DNA of 10,257 bases from a virus. The stretch lies in UHGV virus genome UHGV-0185894; one strand, 5' to 3'. Each line of letters begins with the position of its first letter. Position 1 is the stretch's first letter. Below, piece by piece: positions 1 through 10,257 of this stretch. Made by a program: the position numbers and the translations under genes. The notes below the pieces were generated by a model that worked only from the letters and a program-made list of their open reading frames with translations, ran no database searches and was not told the DNA's origin.

Positions 1-1
1 G

Positions 2-214
2 CGCGGCGGGATAGAACGAGCGCACGAGCTGGAACACGCCGACACCGAGGCCGGTGGCATCAATACCGATGTATTCGACCCCTAGGGCCCCACCGCCGGG
101 GAGAAAGCCAGCCACGCCGACCTCGCCTGGGCGACCATGCACGCCCTGTTAAATGAGCCACTCACCGCCGGTATCAGCACCCCGCTGACATCCACCATTC
201 TGGAGTTTTACTGA
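2..214 (+). CDS. P: 3' end of the late gene upstream of portal (position of P2 gpP, terminase large/ATPase subunit); partial at window edge; contains an in-frame TAG at 83..85
   Basis: The frame ending in TGA at 212..214 overlaps the Q start ATG (214..216) by 1 nt, as in the P2 P-Q operon. The translation in this frame is protein-like (…AWATMHALLNEPLTAGISTPLTSTILEFY*) but is interrupted by TAG at 83..85. Identity as terminase is inferred from position only. Confidence 0.45.
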
Positions 215-1248
215 TGAGCAAGAAAGAAGGGAAAACACCGCAGCCAGCGGCAAAAACAATCACCGCCAGCGCCCCGAAAATGGAAGCATTCACCTTTGGC
301 GAGCCGGTGCCGGTACTCGACCGCCGTGACATTCTGGATTACGTCGAGTGCATCAGTAACGGCAGATGGTATGAGCCGCCGGTCAGCTTTACCGGTCTGG
401 CAAAAAGCCTGCGTGCTGCCGTGCATCACAGCTCACCGATTTACGTCAAACGCAATATTCTGGCCTCAACATTTATCCCGCATCCGTGGCTTTCCCAGCA
501 GGATTTCAGCCGCTTTGTGCTGGATTTTCTGGTGTTCGGTAATGCGTTTCTGGAAAAGCGTTACAGCACCACCGGTAAGGTCATCAGACTGGAAACCTCA
601 CCGGCAAAATATACCCGCCGTGGTGTGGAAGAGGATGTTTACTGGTGGGTGCCGTCCTTCAACGAGCCGACACCTTTCACGCCCGGTTCCGTGTTTCACC
701 TGCTGGAGCCGGATATTAATCAGGAGCTGTACGGCCTGCCGGAATACCTCAGCGCCCTTAACTCTGCCTGGCTGAATGAGTCGGCCACGCTGTTCCGCCG
801 CAAGTATTACGAAAACGGCGCACATGCCGGATACATCATGTACGTCACCGATGCCGTGCAGGATCGCAACGATATCGAAATGCTTCGCGAAAACATGGTG
901 AAGTCGAAAGGCCGCAACAACTTTAAAAATCTGTTTCTCTATGCCCCACAAGGGAAAGCCGACGGCATTAAAATTATCCCGCTCAGTGAAGTGGCGACGA
1001 AGGACGATTTTTTTAATATCAAAAAAGCCAGTGCCGCAGACCTGCTGGACGCCCACCGCATCCCCTTTCAGTTGATGGGCGGCAAGCCGGAGAACGTCGG
1101 GTCGCTGGGTGATATTGAGAAAGTGGCAAAGGTCTTTGTCCGCAATGAGCTTATCCCGTTACAGGACAGGATCCGAGAGATAAACGGCTGGCTCGGTCAG
1201 GAGGTCATCCGCTTTAAAAACTACTCACTGGACACTGACAACGACTGA
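214..1248 (+). CDS. Q: Phage portal (capsid portal) protein, P2 gpQ-like, 344 aa
   Basis: The supplied 344-aa translation matches the P2 Q portal protein in length and sequence as I recall it. GGAG lies 8 nt upstream of the ATG, and the gene is translationally coupled to the upstream ORF. Confidence 0.9.
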   Translation: MSKKEGKTPQPAAKTITASAPKMEAFTFGEPVPVLDRRDILDYVECISNGRWYEPPVSFTGLAKSLRAAVHHSSPIYVKRNILASTFIPHPWLSQQDFSRFVLDFLVFGNAFLEKRYSTTGKVIRLETSPAKYTRRGVEEDVYWWVPSFNEPTPFTPGSVFHLLEPDINQELYGLPEYLSALNSAWLNESATLFRRKYYENGAHAGYIMYVTDAVQDRNDIEMLRENMVKSKGRNNFKNLFLYAPQGKADGIKIIPLSEVATKDDFFNIKKASAADLLDAHRIPFQLMGGKPENVGSLGDIEKVAKVFVRNELIPLQDRIREINGWLGQEVIRFKNYSLDTDND

Positions 1249-1252
1249 ACAT

Positions 1253-1276
1253 CGCCGCCTGCGGGCGGCTTTTTTA
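1253..1276 (+). terminator. Rho-independent terminator after Q (end of the P-Q late operon)
   Basis: GCCGCC (1254..1259), loop TGCG, GGCGGC (1264..1269) form a perfect 6-bp GC stem, followed directly by TTTTTT (1270..1275), 5 nt after the Q stop codon. Confidence 0.65.
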
Positions 1277-1417
1277 CATCCCGTCATCACGCCCTCACAC
1301 GCTCACCACCGCACAAAACACCCCTTAGACACACCAACGCCCCGACGCACAATCTAAACGCCATCACGACGCGCTCAGACGCTGAAAAAATAAAATCAGC
1401 ACCACCGCCAGCGCGCA

Positions 1418-1436
1418 GTGCTTTCCCCGCCTCGCC
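1418..1436 (-). other. cos: cos site core (P2-type 19-nt cohesive end sequence)
   Basis: Plus strand GTGCTTTCCCCGCCTCGCC; its reverse complement GGCGAGGCGGGGAAAGCAC is the P2 cohesive-end sequence. It lies ~170 bp beyond the Q stop, as expected for P2. Confidence 0.8.
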
Positions 1437-1583
1437 CGCCCGCTTCATGCAGGGCTTTAAATGCAGTGCAGCAGTAATGGTTAGAATGCGCCAGCACTGA
1501 TGTTAGATACCAGAACTGGCATTTAAAAATGAATGCAAATAAATGCACCAAACTAATTACTTACTGACAAAAAATAAGTAAAA

Positions 1584-2468
1584 TCAGGCGCAAGTTGGCA
1601 TTGAGACCCCTTTCAGGGTATTAGGAATAATTATTTCAGGAGAAAAAATCATCACTTCCTCTCCAGATTTTTTGAGATGCGCTGTATATTGCAATGAATA
1701 CTCAACTTGCGGAAATTCATTATAAATATCTTTAATTTCCTTAGCGTTATCATAAGAAACAAGCCAATTTGGGAAATTAATTTCTGTGAGTTTCTTCATA
1801 ACCAATACATGGTCATCATGCTCATAAAAATTCCTGTAAAGCCCTTGCCCTTTAATATAGTAAGGAGGATCCAAATACAAAAGAATTTTATTTTTATCCA
1901 CCTTTCCCATATTATCCATAAAATTCAAAGCATCAAGAAAATCCAAAGCATCCAGATTAGTTACTACTATTCTTTGATTATAATTTGCTATCTTCTCAAT
2001 TCTTGAAATTAAATCCGCCCTGTTAAAGCGAACATCCATTTTCCATTTTCCATTTTGTGATTTCCCGCCTATAACCCCCGCCTTGAGAATACCTGAACGA
2101 TTTGTTCTATTTAAGAAAAACGCAGCAAAGCCAACCTCAAGCTTAGTAAACTCAGAAGGATTCGAAATAACATAGCGATGAAAAGACCATTCATCCATAT
2201 CTATCTTTGCTCGGCTAATAAGTCGGCAAAGCTCATCAGTATCACTAACAACAGATGACCAAAAAGAATAAACAGCAAAATCTGCATCATTTATATAGAC
2301 TTTACGGACATACTCTTCCAATAATAATTCTAAAGCCACCCCTGCACCACCAGCGTAAGGTTCTGCATATGCTCCATCATTCAACGAGTTTTTTTCAATA
2401 ACATCTTTTAAAAAGTAAGATAACTTACCTTTCCCGCCGGGGTATCTTAATGGAGTATAAAATTTCAT
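1584..2468 (-). CDS. Dam-family (D12 class, alpha-type) N6-adenine DNA methyltransferase, 294 aa
   Basis: N-terminal RYPGGKGKL (compare Dam LKWAGGK), SAM-binding motif I AEPYAGGAGV (FxGxG), and catalytic motif IV DPPY at aa 200..203 (nt 1871..1860, checked against the DNA). The motif order I-then-IV is that of Dam-like alpha-class enzymes. RBS GAGAGGG lies upstream of the ATG. Confidence 0.85.
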   Translation of the reverse strand: MKFYTPLRYPGGKGKLSYFLKDVIEKNSLNDGAYAEPYAGGAGVALELLLEEYVRKVYINDADFAVYSFWSSVVSDTDELCRLISRAKIDMDEWSFHRYVISNPSEFTKLEVGFAAFFLNRTNRSGILKAGVIGGKSQNGKWKMDVRFNRADLISRIEKIANYNQRIVVTNLDALDFLDALNFMDNMGKVDKNKILLYLDPPYYIKGQGLYRNFYEHDDHVLVMKKLTEINFPNWLVSYDNAKEIKDIYNEFPQVEYSLQYTAHLKKSGEEVMIFSPEIIIPNTLKGVSMPTCA

Positions 2469-2537
2469 AAATCCCTCTCATTCCTGATTTTGTAGTTTAT
2501 CAGTTTCTGGACATCCATGTCCAGATGTAGACAAATC

Positions 2538-4043
2538 TCACTCACTCCAAATAAGGCTTAATAACAACTCAAAGTTATCCCACTCAGTGTTGACAGCCTC
2601 TTTTGAGGGAATTAAGTGTGGGTTATGTACATACTGCTGCAATGAACCATCATGTTTAGTTATTTGGCTCGAGAAAGTTATTACAGCCGTACATTGACTC
2701 CCCGTCATCTTTTTATTTTCCCGAAGGAAATTAGCACACATTTTAACCTTATCATGAAGCCCTGGAGTTCTATGCGGTTCCTTAAATTGTAACTTGTTTT
2801 CTTCAACAAAAGTGCTTACAGAGAGATCTATAAATATTCTCAACAATATTGAGATAGCATTAGGGGTGTTATCAAATGTCAGATGCGACTTAAGCTCATT
2901 AAATATTCTAGAGCATTTCTTATGCCCTCTAAAATTAAATTTCACATAAGATGGCACCAACACATTACGATCTACTTTAGGAGGAGTTTTTCCCTTGTTT
3001 TTATTCTGTTCCGTACCCGAAACTTTAGATTTACTCTCTTCTGTGCCTACATGTCTAGAATAATCATCTTCCTGTTTATCCACACCTGTATTCTTTAAGG
3101 CATCACCTTCTGAAAGACCTACTTTCTTTACACTCACAGATGCATCATTTTTGTCAATAGAATCATGTTTTTTCTCTGTAAGAAAAGATTTAGGCTCCAG
3201 TAAACTCCACGGCTTATCTAAAAGAGAGTCTGAAGGTTTTATTTTTTGTTCAATAATAAATGTAACCCTGTCATCTTGGCTACGAATCCTATTAACAGTA
3301 AAACAAGCCTTACCTTTATCATCCTCTTCAATCATTACATCTAAAATATTTTTTAATTGTGCACAAAAACGTTCATAAGGCTGATATGAGTATAGAACTC
3401 CATTAATGCTTTTTAAATTAAAATAATCCCTCACCTTTAAATCACCAAAAAGACGCGTGATGTTTGTGATTTTTAAAAGTCTTTTTTTAGCAATTATCTC
3501 TTTATATAAATCAGTATTGAACTCTATAAATGTAAGTATTTGATTACCAAATGACTGCTTACCCATCCTAGCCAGATGTCGTGCTTTTTCTGTTGCAGTC
3601 CATTCAACTCTTCCAACTCCAGCATTTTGACCAGTATGCTTTAAATTGACCCAATGCTCATATTCATCATCGTCAAAAAGAACGCAGTTATCTATAACAT
3701 TAATATCTTTAAGCTGAGTAATCTTAAGTTTTTCAAAAGCTTTCCGTGCTTTTTCTGTTGGTGCAAGTCTAGGAGAGTGTAAAAGTTTAAGGGCTGTAAC
3801 TCGACGATTACCTTCAGCAACGACGAAAAAGCCAGATTCCTCTTCACTAGGATAAACTAATATGTTTTCAGACGGATCTAAACCTTTCGAAGCAATATCT
3901 TTAGCCAAGCGATAAATGCGGTCGTACTGCAAGTCAAGCATCTTGGCAATAGCATCACGCTGATTTTCTGCTGACGTCGGGAAACGAGGGTTATCAACAT
4001 CCAAAAGTAACTTATTGATATTCATTGATTTTAGTTGATTCAT
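2538..4043 (-). CDS. ParB/Srx-like N-terminal domain protein with low-complexity linker and uncharacterised C-terminal domain (candidate nuclease/NTP-binding effector), ~501 aa; longest ORF extends to 4112 (524 aa)
   Basis: The N-terminal region INKLLLDVDNPRF…GLDPSENILVYPSEEESGFFVVAEGNRRVTALKLL has the ParB N-terminal pattern (…NPR… then a G-x-R-R motif like ParB GERRxRA). NPR (3992..3984) and GNRR (3812..3801) were checked against the DNA. AGAGGA (4056..4051) sits 7 nt upstream of the ATG at 4043, so 4043 or 4049 is a more likely start than 4112. The C-terminal ~140 aa has no motif I recognise. Confidence 0.6.
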   Translation of the reverse strand: MNQLKSMNINKLLLDVDNPRFPTSAENQRDAIAKMLDLQYDRIYRLAKDIASKGLDPSENILVYPSEEESGFFVVAEGNRRVTALKLLHSPRLAPTEKARKAFEKLKITQLKDINVIDNCVLFDDDEYEHWVNLKHTGQNAGVGRVEWTATEKARHLARMGKQSFGNQILTFIEFNTDLYKEIIAKKRLLKITNITRLFGDLKVRDYFNLKSINGVLYSYQPYERFCAQLKNILDVMIEEDDKGKACFTVNRIRSQDDRVTFIIEQKIKPSDSLLDKPWSLLEPKSFLTEKKHDSIDKNDASVSVKKVGLSEGDALKNTGVDKQEDDYSRHVGTEESKSKVSGTEQNKNKGKTPPKVDRNVLVPSYVKFNFRGHKKCSRIFNELKSHLTFDNTPNAISILLRIFIDLSVSTFVEENKLQFKEPHRTPGLHDKVKMCANFLRENKKMTGSQCTAVITFSSQITKHDGSLQQYVHNPHLIPSKEAVNTEWDNFELLLSLIWSE

Positions 4044-4399
4044 CAACATATCCTCTGTTGAATCTTTATGATAAAAATTAATTATTTTTATCATAAATGA
4101 TAGCGTAAACATAGTATTATGAACGACATCAGCCCTGAAGCTTCAAAACTATCATTTACGTTTGCGAGGCACCATCTATCACATTGATTTATAATAAGTA
4201 TCTTTATCTTCACTGCATTGCTCTCAAAAAATCACATAGATGGAAATTCCCCGTTGACACACTCCCAAGTGATGCAGATACATTTCAAGTGCTTCATACA
4301 CATGATAACGGCTATCCCCCTAAATTCTGTGCGTTTCTTTTCCCTCCAGCACAAGGTTGAAATATCTTGCGTGCAGCTTTACTTTGTGAATCTTTGTCA

Positions 4400-6685
4400 T
4401 TATATCCGCGCCATTACTGTTGAGAATCCCGGCCACTCATCAGCGACCGGATACGTGAATTTTTTCCCGTCATAATTTACGGTCGCGCCACGCGCCAGCG
4501 CCTCAAGCTCCCATCGCTGCGGCCTGATACCGTTCTGAGCAAGGTCAACGCGGATACGGGTAATTTGCATTCTTTCCGACCGGGTCAGTCTGGCCGATGG
4601 TGCAATTTCATGTGGTTTTAACGGGCTTCCGTTTCTCTGCTGACGATTTGGTGTTCTCAGCCCGTATTTTAATGCGCCCCTGAGCGCCCTCACGACCTCC
4701 GGGTCATTCCATTCGATAACACCGTCATCAACCAGATTAAGCACTGCTGCGGCGTGCTCAGAAGGCGTGGGAGCCGGTAACGAAGTATTACCGCCGGTGA
4801 GCTTTCCACAGTTATTGACAGGACTCCGAGGCGCGGCGATGCCGCTTTTTAAAGTCAGAGGCTCAACGACCGGAACTTTCGGCACAATGCGCCAGTCCGT
4901 CGTTCTGGTGATATGAATATGACGCGCGCCGAGATGCGGCGCGTAAATGCCGACCACTCTCTCGACTTCTTCCTCGTACTCGTTAACTTCATCCGACGGA
5001 CTACGGGCGACCCTGACAGTCTGACAATCGCGCGGGACATTTGCCCCACCCTGCGCGCTGATATACAACGCAAAATCACCACTGTCTGCGGCGGCGCGTG
5101 CAGCCTCGACGCGCTCGTCAAACTCATCAGCAATGCTGACGCCGCGAGGCAATTTGCGTAGTTCACGGTAAGCCCCCATTGTCGGCAAACCAACCGTTTT
5201 AAATTGTGGGATGCGCCACGTTGACGCCCATGCGGTAACAGCCGCAGCAGTGTCTTTCAGCGGTCTGCCGGTATCGTTATCGAGCTGACCATCCAGTGCA
5301 TAGCCATCGATGTTTTTTGAGATGTATTTCGCGATATACCCCGCAGCACCGCCCTGGTTAAGGTGTTTTGCCTGAAAACGGTTTCGCGCGGCTCCTCTTT
5401 CGTCGCCATCCTCTTTGAGCGCATAGCGACGCATGATTTCGATAATCTGGTTACGCTGGCGTGGATTACAAAAAAGCATCATATGCCAGTGCGGCGTTCC
5501 GTCGTGGTGTGGCTCGACGACACGCAAACCGTAGACCTGTAAATCATTATCTTTGAATGCCGTGCGCATCAGGCTCCAGATATGGCAGAGATAACGCTGC
5601 GCATCCTTTGGATTAAATGCCTCATCGTTCCAGCCGTGATTTAGCTGGACGGTTTTACTTTCGCCTTTTCCGACCTGACGTGTCGGGTGATACTTTGAAG
5701 GCGCGGTAAGCGTGATAAACATCCCCACATCACCCTCTGCGGCGGCGTAACGCTCAATACCGGCAATGGTGTTCATCAGCTCCATCCGGCGAATTTCAGG
5801 ATTAGAAATACTGCCCATCACCTTACTGATAAGGTCGATGCGCTCGCCGGTTTCCCTGTTTTCAAGGTCACACGATTTAAGAAATTCCAGATTTGCCTGG
5901 CGGCGTGCACGCACATCACGAATGGCATGTTTACTGGCATAAGGAGAACGGTCTTTATTCACCTCCCCGACAGCAATCAGTAACGCCTCATGCCAGCGCA
6001 TACGCTGGCCTTTGAGCTGATGAGTCCACCACTCATCGTTAAACAGACGGGCAATGGCAGAATATGCCTGCCTCGTGGTCATCTGTCCTTTACGGTATTT
6101 TTTCCAGTAAAGCGGGGAAATATTGAAAGCACGTGCAGCGCCAGCAACATGACCATAGAGGTGAGCCTGCGCCTCATCCGTAAACAGCGATTCTTTTTCG
6201 CCATGTGCATCCACCCAGGCATCGCTGAGTTCCTCATACATCATGAAAAGCTGCGATGAGATACGGGCGGCAAACTTTTTCAGCTCCTTGTCATTCATTC
6301 CCGGCAGGCGCGCATAGTGGTCACGCTCTGCCAGAAACAGCAACGACGCGTCGGTGTTCATTTCATGGCGCTGATTCACACGCTCAATGCGCGGCCATAA
6401 ACGACGCTGAAAAGTGGATGTGAGGAAATAAAACCCGTGCACCGGGCTTTTATTGCGCCGGATGTAGTCATAGCGTGAAGTAAACAGCGAGCGCAAAAAG
6501 TAAGGCAGGCGGTTAATCGTGGATAAAACACCTTGCATCTGACGCATCTCGTCACGTGTAAGGGGTCTTTCGCGCCCGACGGCCTCGCGTGGCGCGTTCC
6601 ATGCATAAGCACCGGTAAACATCTTACCGGTGCCTGCGGCAAATGCTGACGGAGGGACAAAACGCCCGGAGGCTTTAACGGCCAT
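4400..6685 (-). CDS. A: Replication initiation protein / rolling-circle endonuclease, P2 gpA-like, 761 aa
   Basis: The long ORF matches P2 A in size and position (downstream of B and the small ORFs). Start set at Met15 of the listed 775-aa ORF (MAVKASGRF…, ATG at 6685..6683 checked in the DNA), which gives 761 aa, the length I recall for P2 A. Confidence 0.88.
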   Translation of the reverse strand: MAVKASGRFVPPSAFAAGTGKMFTGAYAWNAPREAVGRERPLTRDEMRQMQGVLSTINRLPYFLRSLFTSRYDYIRRNKSPVHGFYFLTSTFQRRLWPRIERVNQRHEMNTDASLLFLAERDHYARLPGMNDKELKKFAARISSQLFMMYEELSDAWVDAHGEKESLFTDEAQAHLYGHVAGAARAFNISPLYWKKYRKGQMTTRQAYSAIARLFNDEWWTHQLKGQRMRWHEALLIAVGEVNKDRSPYASKHAIRDVRARRQANLEFLKSCDLENRETGERIDLISKVMGSISNPEIRRMELMNTIAGIERYAAAEGDVGMFITLTAPSKYHPTRQVGKGESKTVQLNHGWNDEAFNPKDAQRYLCHIWSLMRTAFKDNDLQVYGLRVVEPHHDGTPHWHMMLFCNPRQRNQIIEIMRRYALKEDGDERGAARNRFQAKHLNQGGAAGYIAKYISKNIDGYALDGQLDNDTGRPLKDTAAAVTAWASTWRIPQFKTVGLPTMGAYRELRKLPRGVSIADEFDERVEAARAAADSGDFALYISAQGGANVPRDCQTVRVARSPSDEVNEYEEEVERVVGIYAPHLGARHIHITRTTDWRIVPKVPVVEPLTLKSGIAAPRSPVNNCGKLTGGNTSLPAPTPSEHAAAVLNLVDDGVIEWNDPEVVRALRGALKYGLRTPNRQQRNGSPLKPHEIAPSARLTRSERMQITRIRVDLAQNGIRPQRWELEALARGATVNYDGKKFTYPVADEWPGFSTVMARI

Positions 6686-6950
6686 ATGAGCCAAAAGCCT
6701 CTGAACAACGCTTGCTGAGTTGCTCAACCTGCACGTTTAAATCAGCAAAAGACTTTGCGCTTCCGGTCAGAATATCGTGATGCATCAGGCCTGAAACGAG
6801 CTGGCTTAATTTCGGGTAATAACCAACCACCGCCAGCCATTCCTGACCGGCGTTTTTACCGCTTTCCGCTCTCTTTTTCTCGTGGAGAATAAACTGAAAG
6901 CTGTCACTGGTAACGACATAACGTTCGCCAATTTCAATACGAATACTCAT
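6675..6950 (-). CDS. Small early-operon protein at the P2 orf83 position, 91 aa, function unknown
   Basis: Intact ORF in the same orientation as A, overlapping the A start by 11 nt and the preceding ORF by 4 nt (operon-style coupling). Assigned by position only. Confidence 0.65.
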   Translation of the reverse strand: MSIRIEIGERYVVTSDSFQFILHEKKRAESGKNAGQEWLAVVGYYPKLSQLVSGLMHHDILTGSAKSFADLNVQVEQLSKRCSEAFGSYGR

Positions 6951-7171
6951 GCCGTTCTCCGGTAATGTTTGTTTTTTGCTTCAAAGACTGACTGACAGGA
7001 AACACAACGCGTGGCTGACGGGTAAGCCGCACGACGGGCAGCAGGTATTGGCGCGTCACACTCTTCGCAAACCAGCGCAGAAGCACCGCAATGTTTTACC
7101 CTTGCCGCGTTAATCTGGCGCTCCAGTAATTCAGCCTGTTGTTCCTGAATAAAATCTACGTTGTCCGGCAT
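6947..7171 (-). CDS. TraR/DksA-type C4 zinc-finger protein at the P2 orf82 position, 74 aa
   Basis: CEEC…17 aa…CVSC four-cysteine arrangement typical of TraR/DksA C4 zinc fingers; coupled to flanking ORFs (1-nt overlap with the next ORF). Confidence 0.75.
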   Translation of the reverse strand: MPDNVDFIQEQQAELLERQINAARVKHCGASALVCEECDAPIPAARRAAYPSATRCVSCQSVFEAKNKHYRRTA

Positions 7172-7476
7172 TACCAGTTCCTTTTGTCGTTCAGTTTTTT
7201 AAATTCATCAGCGCAATAGCTGGCGATTTCTGTCGTTAATTTCGTCAGTTCATCCACGGAGGAAATTTGCTTGTGAAATACAGCGCGTTTAACAAGTAAA
7301 TTGACCACATCAGACAGGAGGTTTAATTCACTCTGATAAATCGCGATAACAGATTCAGTTATTTCGCGTTTTTCTTTATCAAGACCAAGTTGAATAAGAG
7401 ACAAATCGCCATTTTTCATAACGGCGATTTTTAAGGCGTTATTCAGTAATACAACTGAACGAGAACAGAACATCAA
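7171..7476 (-). CDS. Small early-operon protein at the P2 orf81 position, 101 aa, function unknown
   Basis: Intact ORF tightly packed between neighbours (4-nt overlap with the upstream ORF) in the conserved orientation. Confidence 0.65.
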
Positions 7477-7697
7477 AGCACCTCCCCGCGAGACAATCCG
7501 ATATTGTGAAATTTTTCCGACTCCTGACTGAGCAGCTCGACTATCTCCACGCGGGATAACTCCGCCTTTGTGATGTGGCGAATCATGGCATCAAGATGAG
7601 AAGAAAAGCGCGTCGCAGCGTCGGCCTGTGCTTCGGTTCTGGCCTGTTGCAGCAGTAATGCGTATATACCGCACTGATTTTCAGAAACTGTATGCAT
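7473..7697 (-). CDS. Small early-operon protein at the P2 orf80 position, ~74 aa, function unknown
   Basis: ORF listed as 7473..7730; a start at Met12 (ATG 7697..7695) is preferred because GGAG (7707..7704) lies ~6 nt upstream. Confidence 0.6.
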
Positions 7698-7760
7698 AAC
7701 TTTCTCCAGGCAAAAAGAAGCCCCGCACAATTAAGTGCGTTAAAAACTCTGGTTAATTAC

Positions 7761-8261
7761 TTAATGCAGATATTGCTCCGGTTTTACCGACGTCAGAATT
7801 GTCGGTGCATACTCAAACAGACTGAATAATTCACGTAATGCACGGAATAAAGCATCACGCCAGTAACATGACTCTTCATTAATTCGCCAGTATGGCTGGT
7901 TGAATTCTTTTTCAGTCAATCCGGCATGCATAAATAAAGTACGACGCTGACTGACTGTTAAAAAACTAATATATGCATACTCACTTGCGCCAACCTGACG
8001 GCGTTTTGAGAATGCACCACGCAATTCATCAATTGCACATACCAGTCGTTCACGTTCGACGTCGTTCATTTCTTCAAAACACATCGTTGCGTGACGCTGT
8101 TTTAACTGAGCATGGAAGCAAACCGTTAACCGTTCGCGCTCCATCATCTGATTATAATAATCACATGTATCCTGCCAGCGAGGAACGGCAAGATGCTTAC
8201 CAATTATCCGGCGCATAGCTGCTGGCTGTTTTTCAACGAGATTGAGCGTCATCACTGTCAT
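7761..8261 (-). CDS. B: Replication protein B, P2 gpB-like (helicase-loader function reported for P2 B), ~166 aa
   Basis: Position between the orf78-like ORF and the orf80-83 cluster, with size as in P2. Start preferred at Met3 (MTVMTLN…, ATG 8261..8259) because GGAGGG (8277..8272) is 7 nt upstream of it but only 1 nt from Met1. Confidence 0.8.
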   Translation of the reverse strand: MTVMTLNLVEKQPAAMRRIIGKHLAVPRWQDTCDYYNQMMERERLTVCFHAQLKQRHATMCFEEMNDVERERLVCAIDELRGAFSKRRQVGASEYAYISFLTVSQRRTLFMHAGLTEKEFNQPYWRINEESCYWRDALFRALRELFSLFEYAPTILTSVKPEQYLH

Positions 8262-8452
8262 TTCCATACCCTCCGGCTTTTCAGAAAGGTCAGAGCCTTT
8301 TTTAACGGACTCTGTTTTTTGGTGCGGATAATGATTCCCTTACGCCCCTTACCGTGGGTGATGGTGAAGTCAATCGCCCTGGGGCTTTCGTTACGCAGTA
8401 ACTGAGCAATACAACGAGGCTCATTCATACGGTTCTCCTTAACGTGGTTCAC
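8258..8452 (-). CDS. Small basic protein at the P2 orf78 position, 64 aa
   Basis: Intact ORF between cox and B, overlapping cox by 14 nt and B by 4 nt (using the 8261 start). Lys/Arg-rich. Assigned by position. Confidence 0.55.
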   Translation of the reverse strand: MNHVKENRMNEPRCIAQLLRNESPRAIDFTITHGKGRKGIIIRTKKQSPLKKALTFLKSRRVWK

Positions 8453-8714
8453 CGAGACCTAACCACATCAACCAGCCGTCACGAATCTCTTTAGGGCGGC
8501 TTTCATAAGCCAGTTTTAGTCCGTTATTCCATGCCGGAAGGTATACCCAATATTCACCTGCACGACCTGAAGCTGATTGTGGATCGGTCATATCAATTAC
8601 AGGCAGCTTTCCTTTATCGATCATCCGACGAACCGCTCCTGTCGATTTTCCTATTAGTTTTGCGAACTCCTGATAAGGAATCGCATCAGTCATGAGTGTT
8701 ACTTGCTTGCTCAT
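8439..8714 (-). CDS. cox: Cox protein (excisionase / Pc repressor / directionality factor), P2-like, 91 aa
   Basis: 91-aa protein MSKQVTLMTDAIPYQEFAKLIGKSTGAVRRMIDKGKLPV… matches P2 Cox as I recall it; divergent from C across the switch region. Confidence 0.9.
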   Translation of the reverse strand: MSKQVTLMTDAIPYQEFAKLIGKSTGAVRRMIDKGKLPVIDMTDPQSASGRAGEYWVYLPAWNNGLKLAYESRPKEIRDGWLMWLGLGEPR

Positions 8715-8828
8715 GTCGTCCTCTAGCCCTCATGAATTGCGTTTAATGTCTTATAATGCCTTTTAGTGCCCACATCCAAGCACTAAACAATCTACATCTA
8801 AACTAAATACTATTGAGATCTAAACACC
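8715..8828. promoter_or_regulatory. Pe/Pc divergent promoter-operator switch region with C-repressor operator direct repeats
   Basis: ATCTAAAC occurs twice as a direct repeat (8796..8803 and 8818..8825) with a 14-bp spacer (22 bp centre to centre), which matches my recollection of the P2 C operator half-sites flanking the Pe -10. There is also an inverted repeat TAGTGC…GCACTA (8764..8769 / 8780..8785). Confidence 0.55.
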
Positions 8829-9128
8829 ATGTCAAACACGATAAGCGAGAAGATAGTCTTAATGCGAAAATCAGAGTATTTGAGCAGACAACAACTTGCT
8901 GATTTAACAGGGGTTCCGTATGGCACGCTGAGTTACTATGAAAGTGGTCGTTCAACACCTCCAACAGATGTCATGATGAACATCCTGCAGACCCCACAAT
9001 TCACCAAATACACTTTATGGTTCATGACCAATCAGATCGCTCCTGAGTCCGGGCAAATTGCGCCCGCTCTCGCACACTTTGGGCAAAACGAAACAACGTC
9101 GCCCCACTCCGGTCAAAAGACTGGTTAA
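8829..9128 (+). CDS. C: Immunity repressor C, P2-like, 99 aa
   Basis: 99-aa protein MSNTISEKIVLMRKSEYLSRQQLADLTGVPYGTLSYYESGRSTP… contains a helix-turn-helix-like segment and has the size and position of P2 C, divergent from cox. Confidence 0.9.
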   Translation: MSNTISEKIVLMRKSEYLSRQQLADLTGVPYGTLSYYESGRSTPPTDVMMNILQTPQFTKYTLWFMTNQIAPESGQIAPALAHFGQNETTSPHSGQKTG

Positions 9129-9243
9129 CAATTCATCGTGAATATATTCATCACAAGTGCCTACTATTGGTGGCTAAATTTCAGCCACCACGAAAAAAGC
9201 GATTAGTAGTCGCAAAAAAACACACCACTCGGAGGGTTTTCTG

Positions 9244-10257
9244 ATGGCAATCAAAAAACTCGATGATGGTCGATATGAAGTGGACATCCGCCCTACTGGA
9301 CGTAATGGAAAACGCATCCGTAGGAAGTTTGATAAGAAAAGCGAAGCTGTCGCTTTCGAGAAATACACGTTGTACAACCACCACAATAAAGAATGGCTAT
9401 CAAAACCAACAGACAAGCGACGTCTGTCGGAGCTGACACAGATCTGGTGGGATTTAAAGGGTAAACACGAAGAGCATGGGAAATCTAATCTTGGAAAAAT
9501 TGAAATCTTCACAAAAATAACGAATGACCCATGCGCATTTCAAATTACGAAATCGCTTATCAGCCAGTACTGCGCCACCCGAAGAAGTCAGGGTATTAAA
9601 CCTTCGAGTATCAATCGTGATTTAACATGTATTAGCGGCATGTTTACAGCCCTGATTGAAGCGGAGTTATTCTTTGGTGAGCACCCTATCAGAGGGACAA
9701 AAAGGCTTAAGGAGGAAAAACCAGAAACAGGCTATCTAACACAGGAAGAAATTGCCTTACTGCTTGCAGCACTTGACGGCGACAATAAAAAGATTGCGAT
9801 TCTTTGCCTGAGTACAGGAGCACGTTGGGGAGAAGCAGCTCGTTTGAAAGCAGAAAATATCATCCATAACCGCGTCACGTTTGTTAAAACGAAAACAAAC
9901 AAACCACGCACCGTCCCGATCTCAGAGGCTGTTGCCAAAATGATCGCGGATAACAAACGAGGTTTTTTATTCCCTGATGCTGATTACCCTCGCTTCAGAC
10001 GAACAATGAAAGCAATAAAACCGGATTTGCCAATGGGGCAAGCCACACATGCACTAAGGCACAGCTTTGCCACTCATTTCATGATTAATGGAGGAAGTAT
10101 TATCACGCTACAACGGATACTAGGTCACACGCGGATTGAGCAAACTATGGTTTACGCTCATTTTGCGCCAGAGTACCTTCAGGACGCCATTTCTCTTAAT
10201 CCGCTAAGAGGTGGTACTGAGGCCGAGAGTGTCCACACAGTGTCCACAGTAGAGTAA
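9244..10257 (+). CDS. int: Tyrosine integrase, P2 Int-like, 337 aa
   Basis: Size and position downstream of C; C-terminal catalytic region contains HxLRHSFATH and the Y of MVYAHF (R-H-R-Y tyrosine recombinase signature); GGAGGG RBS at 9231..9236; stop codon TAA is the last 3 nt of the window. Confidence 0.9.
   Translation: MAIKKLDDGRYEVDIRPTGRNGKRIRRKFDKKSEAVAFEKYTLYNHHNKEWLSKPTDKRRLSELTQIWWDLKGKHEEHGKSNLGKIEIFTKITNDPCAFQITKSLISQYCATRRSQGIKPSSINRDLTCISGMFTALIEAELFFGEHPIRGTKRLKEEKPETGYLTQEEIALLLAALDGDNKKIAILCLSTGARWGEAARLKAENIIHNRVTFVKTKTNKPRTVPISEAVAKMIADNKRGFLFPDADYPRFRRTMKAIKPDLPMGQATHALRHSFATHFMINGGSIITLQRILGHTRIEQTMVYAHFAPEYLQDAISLNPLRGGTEAESVHTVSTVE

Follow-up and report, generated by a model that had tools for sequence, protein, structure and literature searches.

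An in-frame TAG beside the portal gene of a P2-like prophage probably belongs to a chimeric contig tip

The DNA analyzed here (the window; 10,257 nt of virus genome UHGV-0185894) starts inside the 3′ end of a late operon of the P2 type, and its first 214 nt raise the question of whether the terminase gene of this prophage is broken, ends early, or has been misrepresented in the assembly. Frame 2 (2–214) contains a TAG at 83–85 and a TGA at 212–214, exactly with the translation that was first quoted, and the TGA has base 214 in common with the ATG of the portal gene Q (214–216). Both points had been made in a preliminary description of this DNA, and both are confirmed. That description also considered the frame to read as plausible protein on either side of the TAG and offered two readings: either position 85 is the true end of the terminase gene and the coding look of the following ∼125 nt is accidental, or the gene carries a nonsense codon, a frameshift, or a sequencing error. 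Alignment to phage P2 and to its intact relatives leads to a different reading, in which most of the sequence upstream of the TAG is the opposite strand of the terminase gene itself.

Composition of the left edge of the window

The segments and genes on which the argument turns are as follows.

1–79, minus strand: reverse-complement copy of gene P nt 1402–1480 (gpP codons 468–494, ...VEYIGIDATGLGVGVFQLVRSFYPAA), with 100% identity over 79 nt to P2.
80–104, plus strand: junction patch of 80% G+C, a noisy copy of normal P nt 1639–1663 as judged by in-register and gapped similarity to the intact twin; it holds the TAG.
83–85, plus strand: in-frame TAG, which in register replaces TAT (Tyr548) of gpP, as read directly from the alignment to normal sequence.
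105–214, plus strand: authentic 3′ end of the terminase large-subunit gene P, codons 555–590 plus the TGA at 212–214, identical to P2 and to the intact twin L003.
214–1248, plus strand: portal gene Q (344 aa; PF04860, Phage_portal), the ATG of which overlaps the P stop by one base.

The right-hand part of this region is ordinary P2. With gene P of bacteriophage P2 (gpP, 590 aa; Terminase_6N/6C) and the adjoining Q, the window shares the last 36 codons of P (...SHADLAWATMHALLNEPLTAGISTPLTSTILEFY and the stop), the TGA/ATG overlap, and Q itself; over these 36 codons it is identical to P2 in both DNA and protein, and the Q DNA is ∼97% identical to that of P2 and its relatives. The Terminase_6C match at this end of P is weak (E 0.0035); it misses the Pfam cut-off owing to the short length scanned (42 aa). 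P as annotated in P2 (590 aa) stops at the same one-base overlap with Q, and in all of the ten other contexts with identical copies of the Q protein an intact P of 590–593 aa lies upstream. A natural end of the terminase at position 85 is refuted by these comparisons: intact homologues, annotated P2 gpP included, run through to the TGA at the Q ATG, and 105–214 encodes their exact last 36 residues.

Upstream of codon 555 the resemblance takes another form. P2 and all intact relatives continue collinearly in the sense orientation, whereas the window passes into the noisy patch and then into antisense codons 494–468. Near-identity matches to P2-like phages and E. coli prophages all begin at window 101 and none at 1, and the match of 1–79 was recovered by a more sensitive search with 1–105 as the query. 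This segment corresponds at 100% to P2 (AF063097) 1514–1592, on the strand opposite to the Q match, and at 100% to more than 1,700 E. coli genomes, again on the opposite strand, where it is annotated as ‘terminase ATPase subunit’. In the intact gene, P nt 1402–1480 lies on the same strand as, and 158–183 nt upstream of, the sequence that follows 1–79 here. The window therefore joins two parts of a single locus in opposite orientation, P nt 1402–1480 antisense to P nt ∼1639 onward sense, with a separation of 158 nt. A divergent P allele from another P2-like phage, which would make 1–100 a product of mosaicism, is ruled out by the perfect identity of 1–79 to P2 and by its strand.

The coding appearance of the upstream frame can be understood in the same terms. 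The antisense frame of gene P that is used by 1–82 contains only five stops in 591 codons and has a longest open run of 258 codons; because it is nearly stop-free, its openness is uninformative. The peptide first read from 1–82, RGGIERAHELEHADTEAGGINTDVFDP, is the antisense read-out of gene P. The suggestion of plausible protein on both sides of the TAG consequently holds downstream, where 105–214 is genuine gpP 555–590, and fails upstream, where 1–79 is antisense to gpP codons 468–494. In translated alignment to P2 gpP, 105–214 matches as the sense C-terminus and 1–79 matches gene P only in antisense; the homology of 1–79 is thus in a different frame, and the premise of one terminase frame running through the region fails with it. 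An uninterrupted sense frame through Terminase_6C upstream of codon 555 is absent from the window, in which that region is occupied by the TAG, the noisy patch, and the reversed segment. The N-terminal ATPase domain of gpP (Terminase_6N) would fall to the left of window position 1.

The patch between these two segments behaves as a degraded copy of the normal sequence and as neither foreign DNA nor a clean mutation. Compared in register with the intact twin, 14 of its 25 bases agree (shuffle p 0.007), and a gapped alignment from register 76 onward requires a string of 1–2-nt indels (∼8) plus three substitutions within 29 nt. When 76–109 is aligned ungapped, 10 of 12 mismatches repeat, as read on the minus strand, the reference base that comes just before (p about 0.003; plus-strand control 4 of 12), a lag-1 test that was post hoc. 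No exact match to the patch was found in IMG/VR or in GTDB species-representative genomes, BLAST of window 74–108 against 28 Gb of complete E. coli genomes returned no match, and the rest of the prophage contains no template for the patch. An origin from foreign, linker, or IS DNA was considered and rejected, given the lack of database matches and the resemblance to normal P sequence, which argues for derivation from P. Adenine-specific mutagenesis of the kind produced by diversity-generating retroelements was likewise rejected, the changes not being A-specific.

The TAG sits inside this patch. It does differ from TAT (Tyr548) by a single T-to-G change in register, but the collinearity of flanking sequence with wild type that an amber mutant would have is missing, as 12 of the 29 bases in 76–104 differ and the sequence farther upstream is on the opposite strand. 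The proposal of a nonsense codon, frameshift, or sequencing error was accordingly correct in the loose sense that the sequence is wrong here, and incorrect insofar as it implied a point mutation in a collinear gene.

The intact twin and recurrent assembly breaks

An identical prophage with an undamaged terminase gene exists in another sample. Between positions 105 and 10257 (10,153 nt) L003, a 48.8-kb contig, matches the window without a single difference (100.000% identity). In L003 an intact 590-aa P (12,255–14,027, reverse strand) immediately precedes Q, and the 70 differences that separate the two sequences are all in 1–104. The junction itself is absent from 5,426 complete E. coli genomes, none of which covers at least 80% of window 1–214, and its exact sequence has no match in IMG/VR or in GTDB species-representative genomes. 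A gapped fold-back pattern of this junction type was found in none of the IMG/VR or JGI metagenome contigs, and the inverted piece occurs at 0 of 80 Q loci in IMG/VR. The junction is thus absent from every collection searched, the only similar case being a contig (L004) with different breakpoints; the same difference in breakpoints rejects a programmed invertible segment.

L004 is one of several assemblies that fail at this place. Within ∼40 nt of gene P (register 65–105, P nt ∼1624–1664) four assemblies end, break, or become scrambled: the window, two assemblies of the identical prophage (L004 and L092), and one of a close relative (L098). L004, a contig named in the SPAdes NODE style, agrees fully with the window from 105 onward and stops at this spot; its last 25 nt are anomalous in a like manner but have other breakpoints, with 10 nt of antisense P nt 1380–1389 and a garbled CCCCCCTGAGGGG before the normal sequence. 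It might share a source sample with the window, and the two are therefore possibly non-independent. In L092 a scaffold gap of ten Ns replaces exactly one base, at register 86, and both flanks are 100% identical to the intact twin. L098, which has the same Q-start sequence as the window, appears to end cleanly at register 65.

There is reason to think that this clustering is related to sequence conservation. Among 71 P2-like loci no common SNP occurs in register 95–225, the flanking common SNPs being at 37 and 226, and the breaks lie within a near-invariant stretch of 131–188 nt among P2-like phages. Terminase genes of this type are found at 2,087 places in 1,790 E. coli genomes, with up to four per genome. 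Since sequence common to co-resident P2-like elements would collapse in a de Bruijn graph, contigs should be expected to stop in the invariant stretch. A stricter version, in which breaks fall at exactly 226 minus k, accounts for the window (k = 127 gives 99) and approximately for L092 (k = 141 gives 86) but fails for L004 and for the left contig of L092, and so could be a partial explanation only. The normal sequence of the window begins at about 226 minus 127, and 127 is a common maximal k among assembler defaults.

The two edges of the window differ in character. On the right, the window stops on the int stop codon, 80 nt inside the prophage, and that edge was therefore cut at a gene boundary. 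Position 1 is the boundary of no complete ORF, which fits a contig end, and the anomaly fills the first 104 nt.

Origin of the junction

We consider it probable that 1–104 forms a chimeric tip on an assembled contig and is no part of the prophage as present in the cell, which most likely carries an intact P2-type terminase gene. The status of position 1 as the contig end and the exact route by which the chimera formed are what we infer from these comparisons. Starting at int, the true contig would extend back across Q to the final ∼110 nt of P, where it enters the near-invariant stretch of 131–188 nt. In samples with more than one P2-like element the assembly graph would branch at this stretch and contigs would stop, and the assembler may have retained a dead-end extension derived from a fold-back chimeric molecule or read. 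Such an extension would begin with the next ∼25 nt of P in noisy form and go on into the opposite strand of this gene from ∼160 nt further upstream, and the TAG would be one error within the noisy patch, TAT (Tyr548) having been read as TAG.

Molecules of the required kind are known. Fold-back chimeras that arise during library preparation and join inverted sequence, typically 50–200 bp apart, have been described from short-read libraries, and the PDSM model attributes such artefact fragments to short reverse-complementary pairing of nearby single strands (PMC8458033; PMC10908179). The window likewise joins one locus to itself in inverted orientation with breakpoints ∼160 nt apart, and the join is not reproduced elsewhere. 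The published artefacts usually have a clean junction at inverted-repeat microhomology, however, whereas the window has ∼25 nt of indel-rich noise and a weak CG–C overlap; they also concern reads, while the window is an assembled contig (PMC8458033; PMC10908179).

Several observations sit uneasily with a chimeric tip. For the contig to continue unbroken through the patch, the assembler must have discarded the true path there, an outcome not expected of ordinary graph cleaning. The succession of perfect, noisy, and perfect sequence is unlike the usual quality decay of a single short read, and the origin of the patch is not fully explained. Nor does the junction offer a convincing microhomology or hairpin: the CG–C overlap is the only microhomology, folding energies at the junction are ordinary (z-scores 0.2–1.1), and the inverted repeats there are weak and imperfect, the best of them (13 nt at 77%) failing to predict the observed junction.

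A real and very recent rearrangement in the lysogen is one alternative. It might be a ∼237-bp inversion of P nt ∼1402–1638, or a fold-back inverted duplication that arose when replication switched template and synthesis at the junction was error-prone. The geometry is that of one junction of a simple 237-bp inversion, the other junction of which would lie ∼160 nt to the left of the window, and if the event were very recent, the complete lack of divergence elsewhere would be no surprise. P2-like prophages that are truly defective, with a damaged P, are also known, in L085, in E. coli H5 and H6, and in the E. coli B lineage. In L085 (1–870; IMG/VR UViG_2718217868_000002), a genuinely defective prophage, P retains its final ∼280 nt, to which tail-tube and late-control-D gene sequence has become fused; the fusion is found at 100% in the complete genomes of E. 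coli H5 and H6, with related matches in genomes of the E. coli B and C lineages. As in the window, only the 3′ part of P remains beside an intact Q in these elements, but in them a clean deletion has joined P to unrelated prophage genes and, unlike the window, they contain no inverted or scrambled segment.

Other evidence makes a rearrangement unlikely. Its junction would be unique across all collections searched, and ∼8 indels and three substitutions in 29 nt against no change in 10,153 nt looks like noise rather than mutation. The similar but non-identical junction of L004 stands at a genuine contig end, which points to a cause at the level of assembly, and L092 and L098 break at the same spot with their retained sides normal (both sides in L092). 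Were the rearrangement real, the Terminase_6C nuclease domain of gpP would be destroyed and the element would be a packaging-dead prophage that keeps its immunity genes and its PD-Lambda-5 cargo.

The recurrence of breaks might instead have a physical basis, with a nick, lesion, or secondary structure at P nt ∼1640–1660 that stops polymerases or gives rise to fold-back molecules. Four assemblies do fail within register 65–105, L092 at exactly one base with perfect flanks, and GGC motifs, which are known triggers of Illumina sequence-specific errors, are abundant on the minus strand just before the site, the strand on which the lag-1 mismatch pattern was seen. Against this stand the unexceptional folding energy of the site, the other assemblies (L003, L093, L099, and L100) and about 80 IMG/VR loci that pass cleanly through it, the post hoc nature of the lag test, and an invariant stretch in co-resident P2-like prophages that already accounts for clustered contig ends; we regard such a hotspot as highly improbable. 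There is a similarly slender chance that the break cluster reflects a physical property of the DNA and not graph tangling alone, and that this property yielded a real terminase-inactivating fold-back inversion in an otherwise pristine, defense-carrying prophage.

A collinear terminase gene with a simple amber mutation or frameshift at codon 548, or with a natural end at nt 85, is almost certainly not what is present: one T-to-G change does yield the TAG and the frame is open on both sides, but 11 further bases in 76–104 differ, the sequence upstream of 80 is the opposite strand, the openness there is a property of the antisense P frame, and intact homologues all end at the TGA by the Q ATG.

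The remainder of the prophage and its interpretation

To the right of the tip, the P 3′ end, Q, cos, the cargo, A, and int are those of an ordinary P2-like prophage. The 19-mer of P2 cos, GGCGAGGCGGGGAAAGCAC, is present exactly at window 1418–1436 (minus strand). L005 and L006, two contigs from Logan with 100% identity to the window, end at window 1411 and 1420, at or beside cos; this phage could have been present in those samples as linear packaged DNA, or the ends could be coincidence.

The cargo slot between cos and the replication gene A is occupied by a two-gene PD-Lambda-5 anti-phage system (window 1584–4112, minus strand). PD-Lambda-5_A is a 524-aa ORF (501 aa in other calls) that is recognized by PADLOC at E 7e-168 and is without a Pfam domain, and PD-Lambda-5_B is a 294-aa D12-class adenine methyltransferase. 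The gpA replication endonuclease follows at window 4400–6727 (minus strand). Its mechanical ORF is 775 aa from a TTG, and the true start is probably an internal ATG, since relatives are called at 761 aa.

In E. coli A7 (NZ_CP028767), the closest complete-genome relative at 99.3% over 101–10257, Q is annotated as a frameshifted pseudogene (L087 3114–4147) and the terminase gene is intact. Two short proteins (P0001 and P0002) start like gpP ∼450–495 and continue into frameshifted tails, and are further damaged or error-containing P fragments in public assemblies.

Taken at face value, the TAG would have this prophage scored as packaging-dead and ‘domesticated’, with its PD-Lambda-5 cargo kept. 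That inference requires a physically real junction, and the evidence favors an artefact; the scoring would most likely be founded on ∼100 bases of assembly error, while an identical phage elsewhere has an intact terminase gene. The anomaly is most likely no real biological feature, and what it mainly offers is a warning to anyone calling pseudogenes at contig ends. Within 100–150 bases of either contig end, an ORF can be a real gene read in antisense, and a pseudogene call made there should be compared with a close relative, to look for strand switches, before it is given a biological reading.
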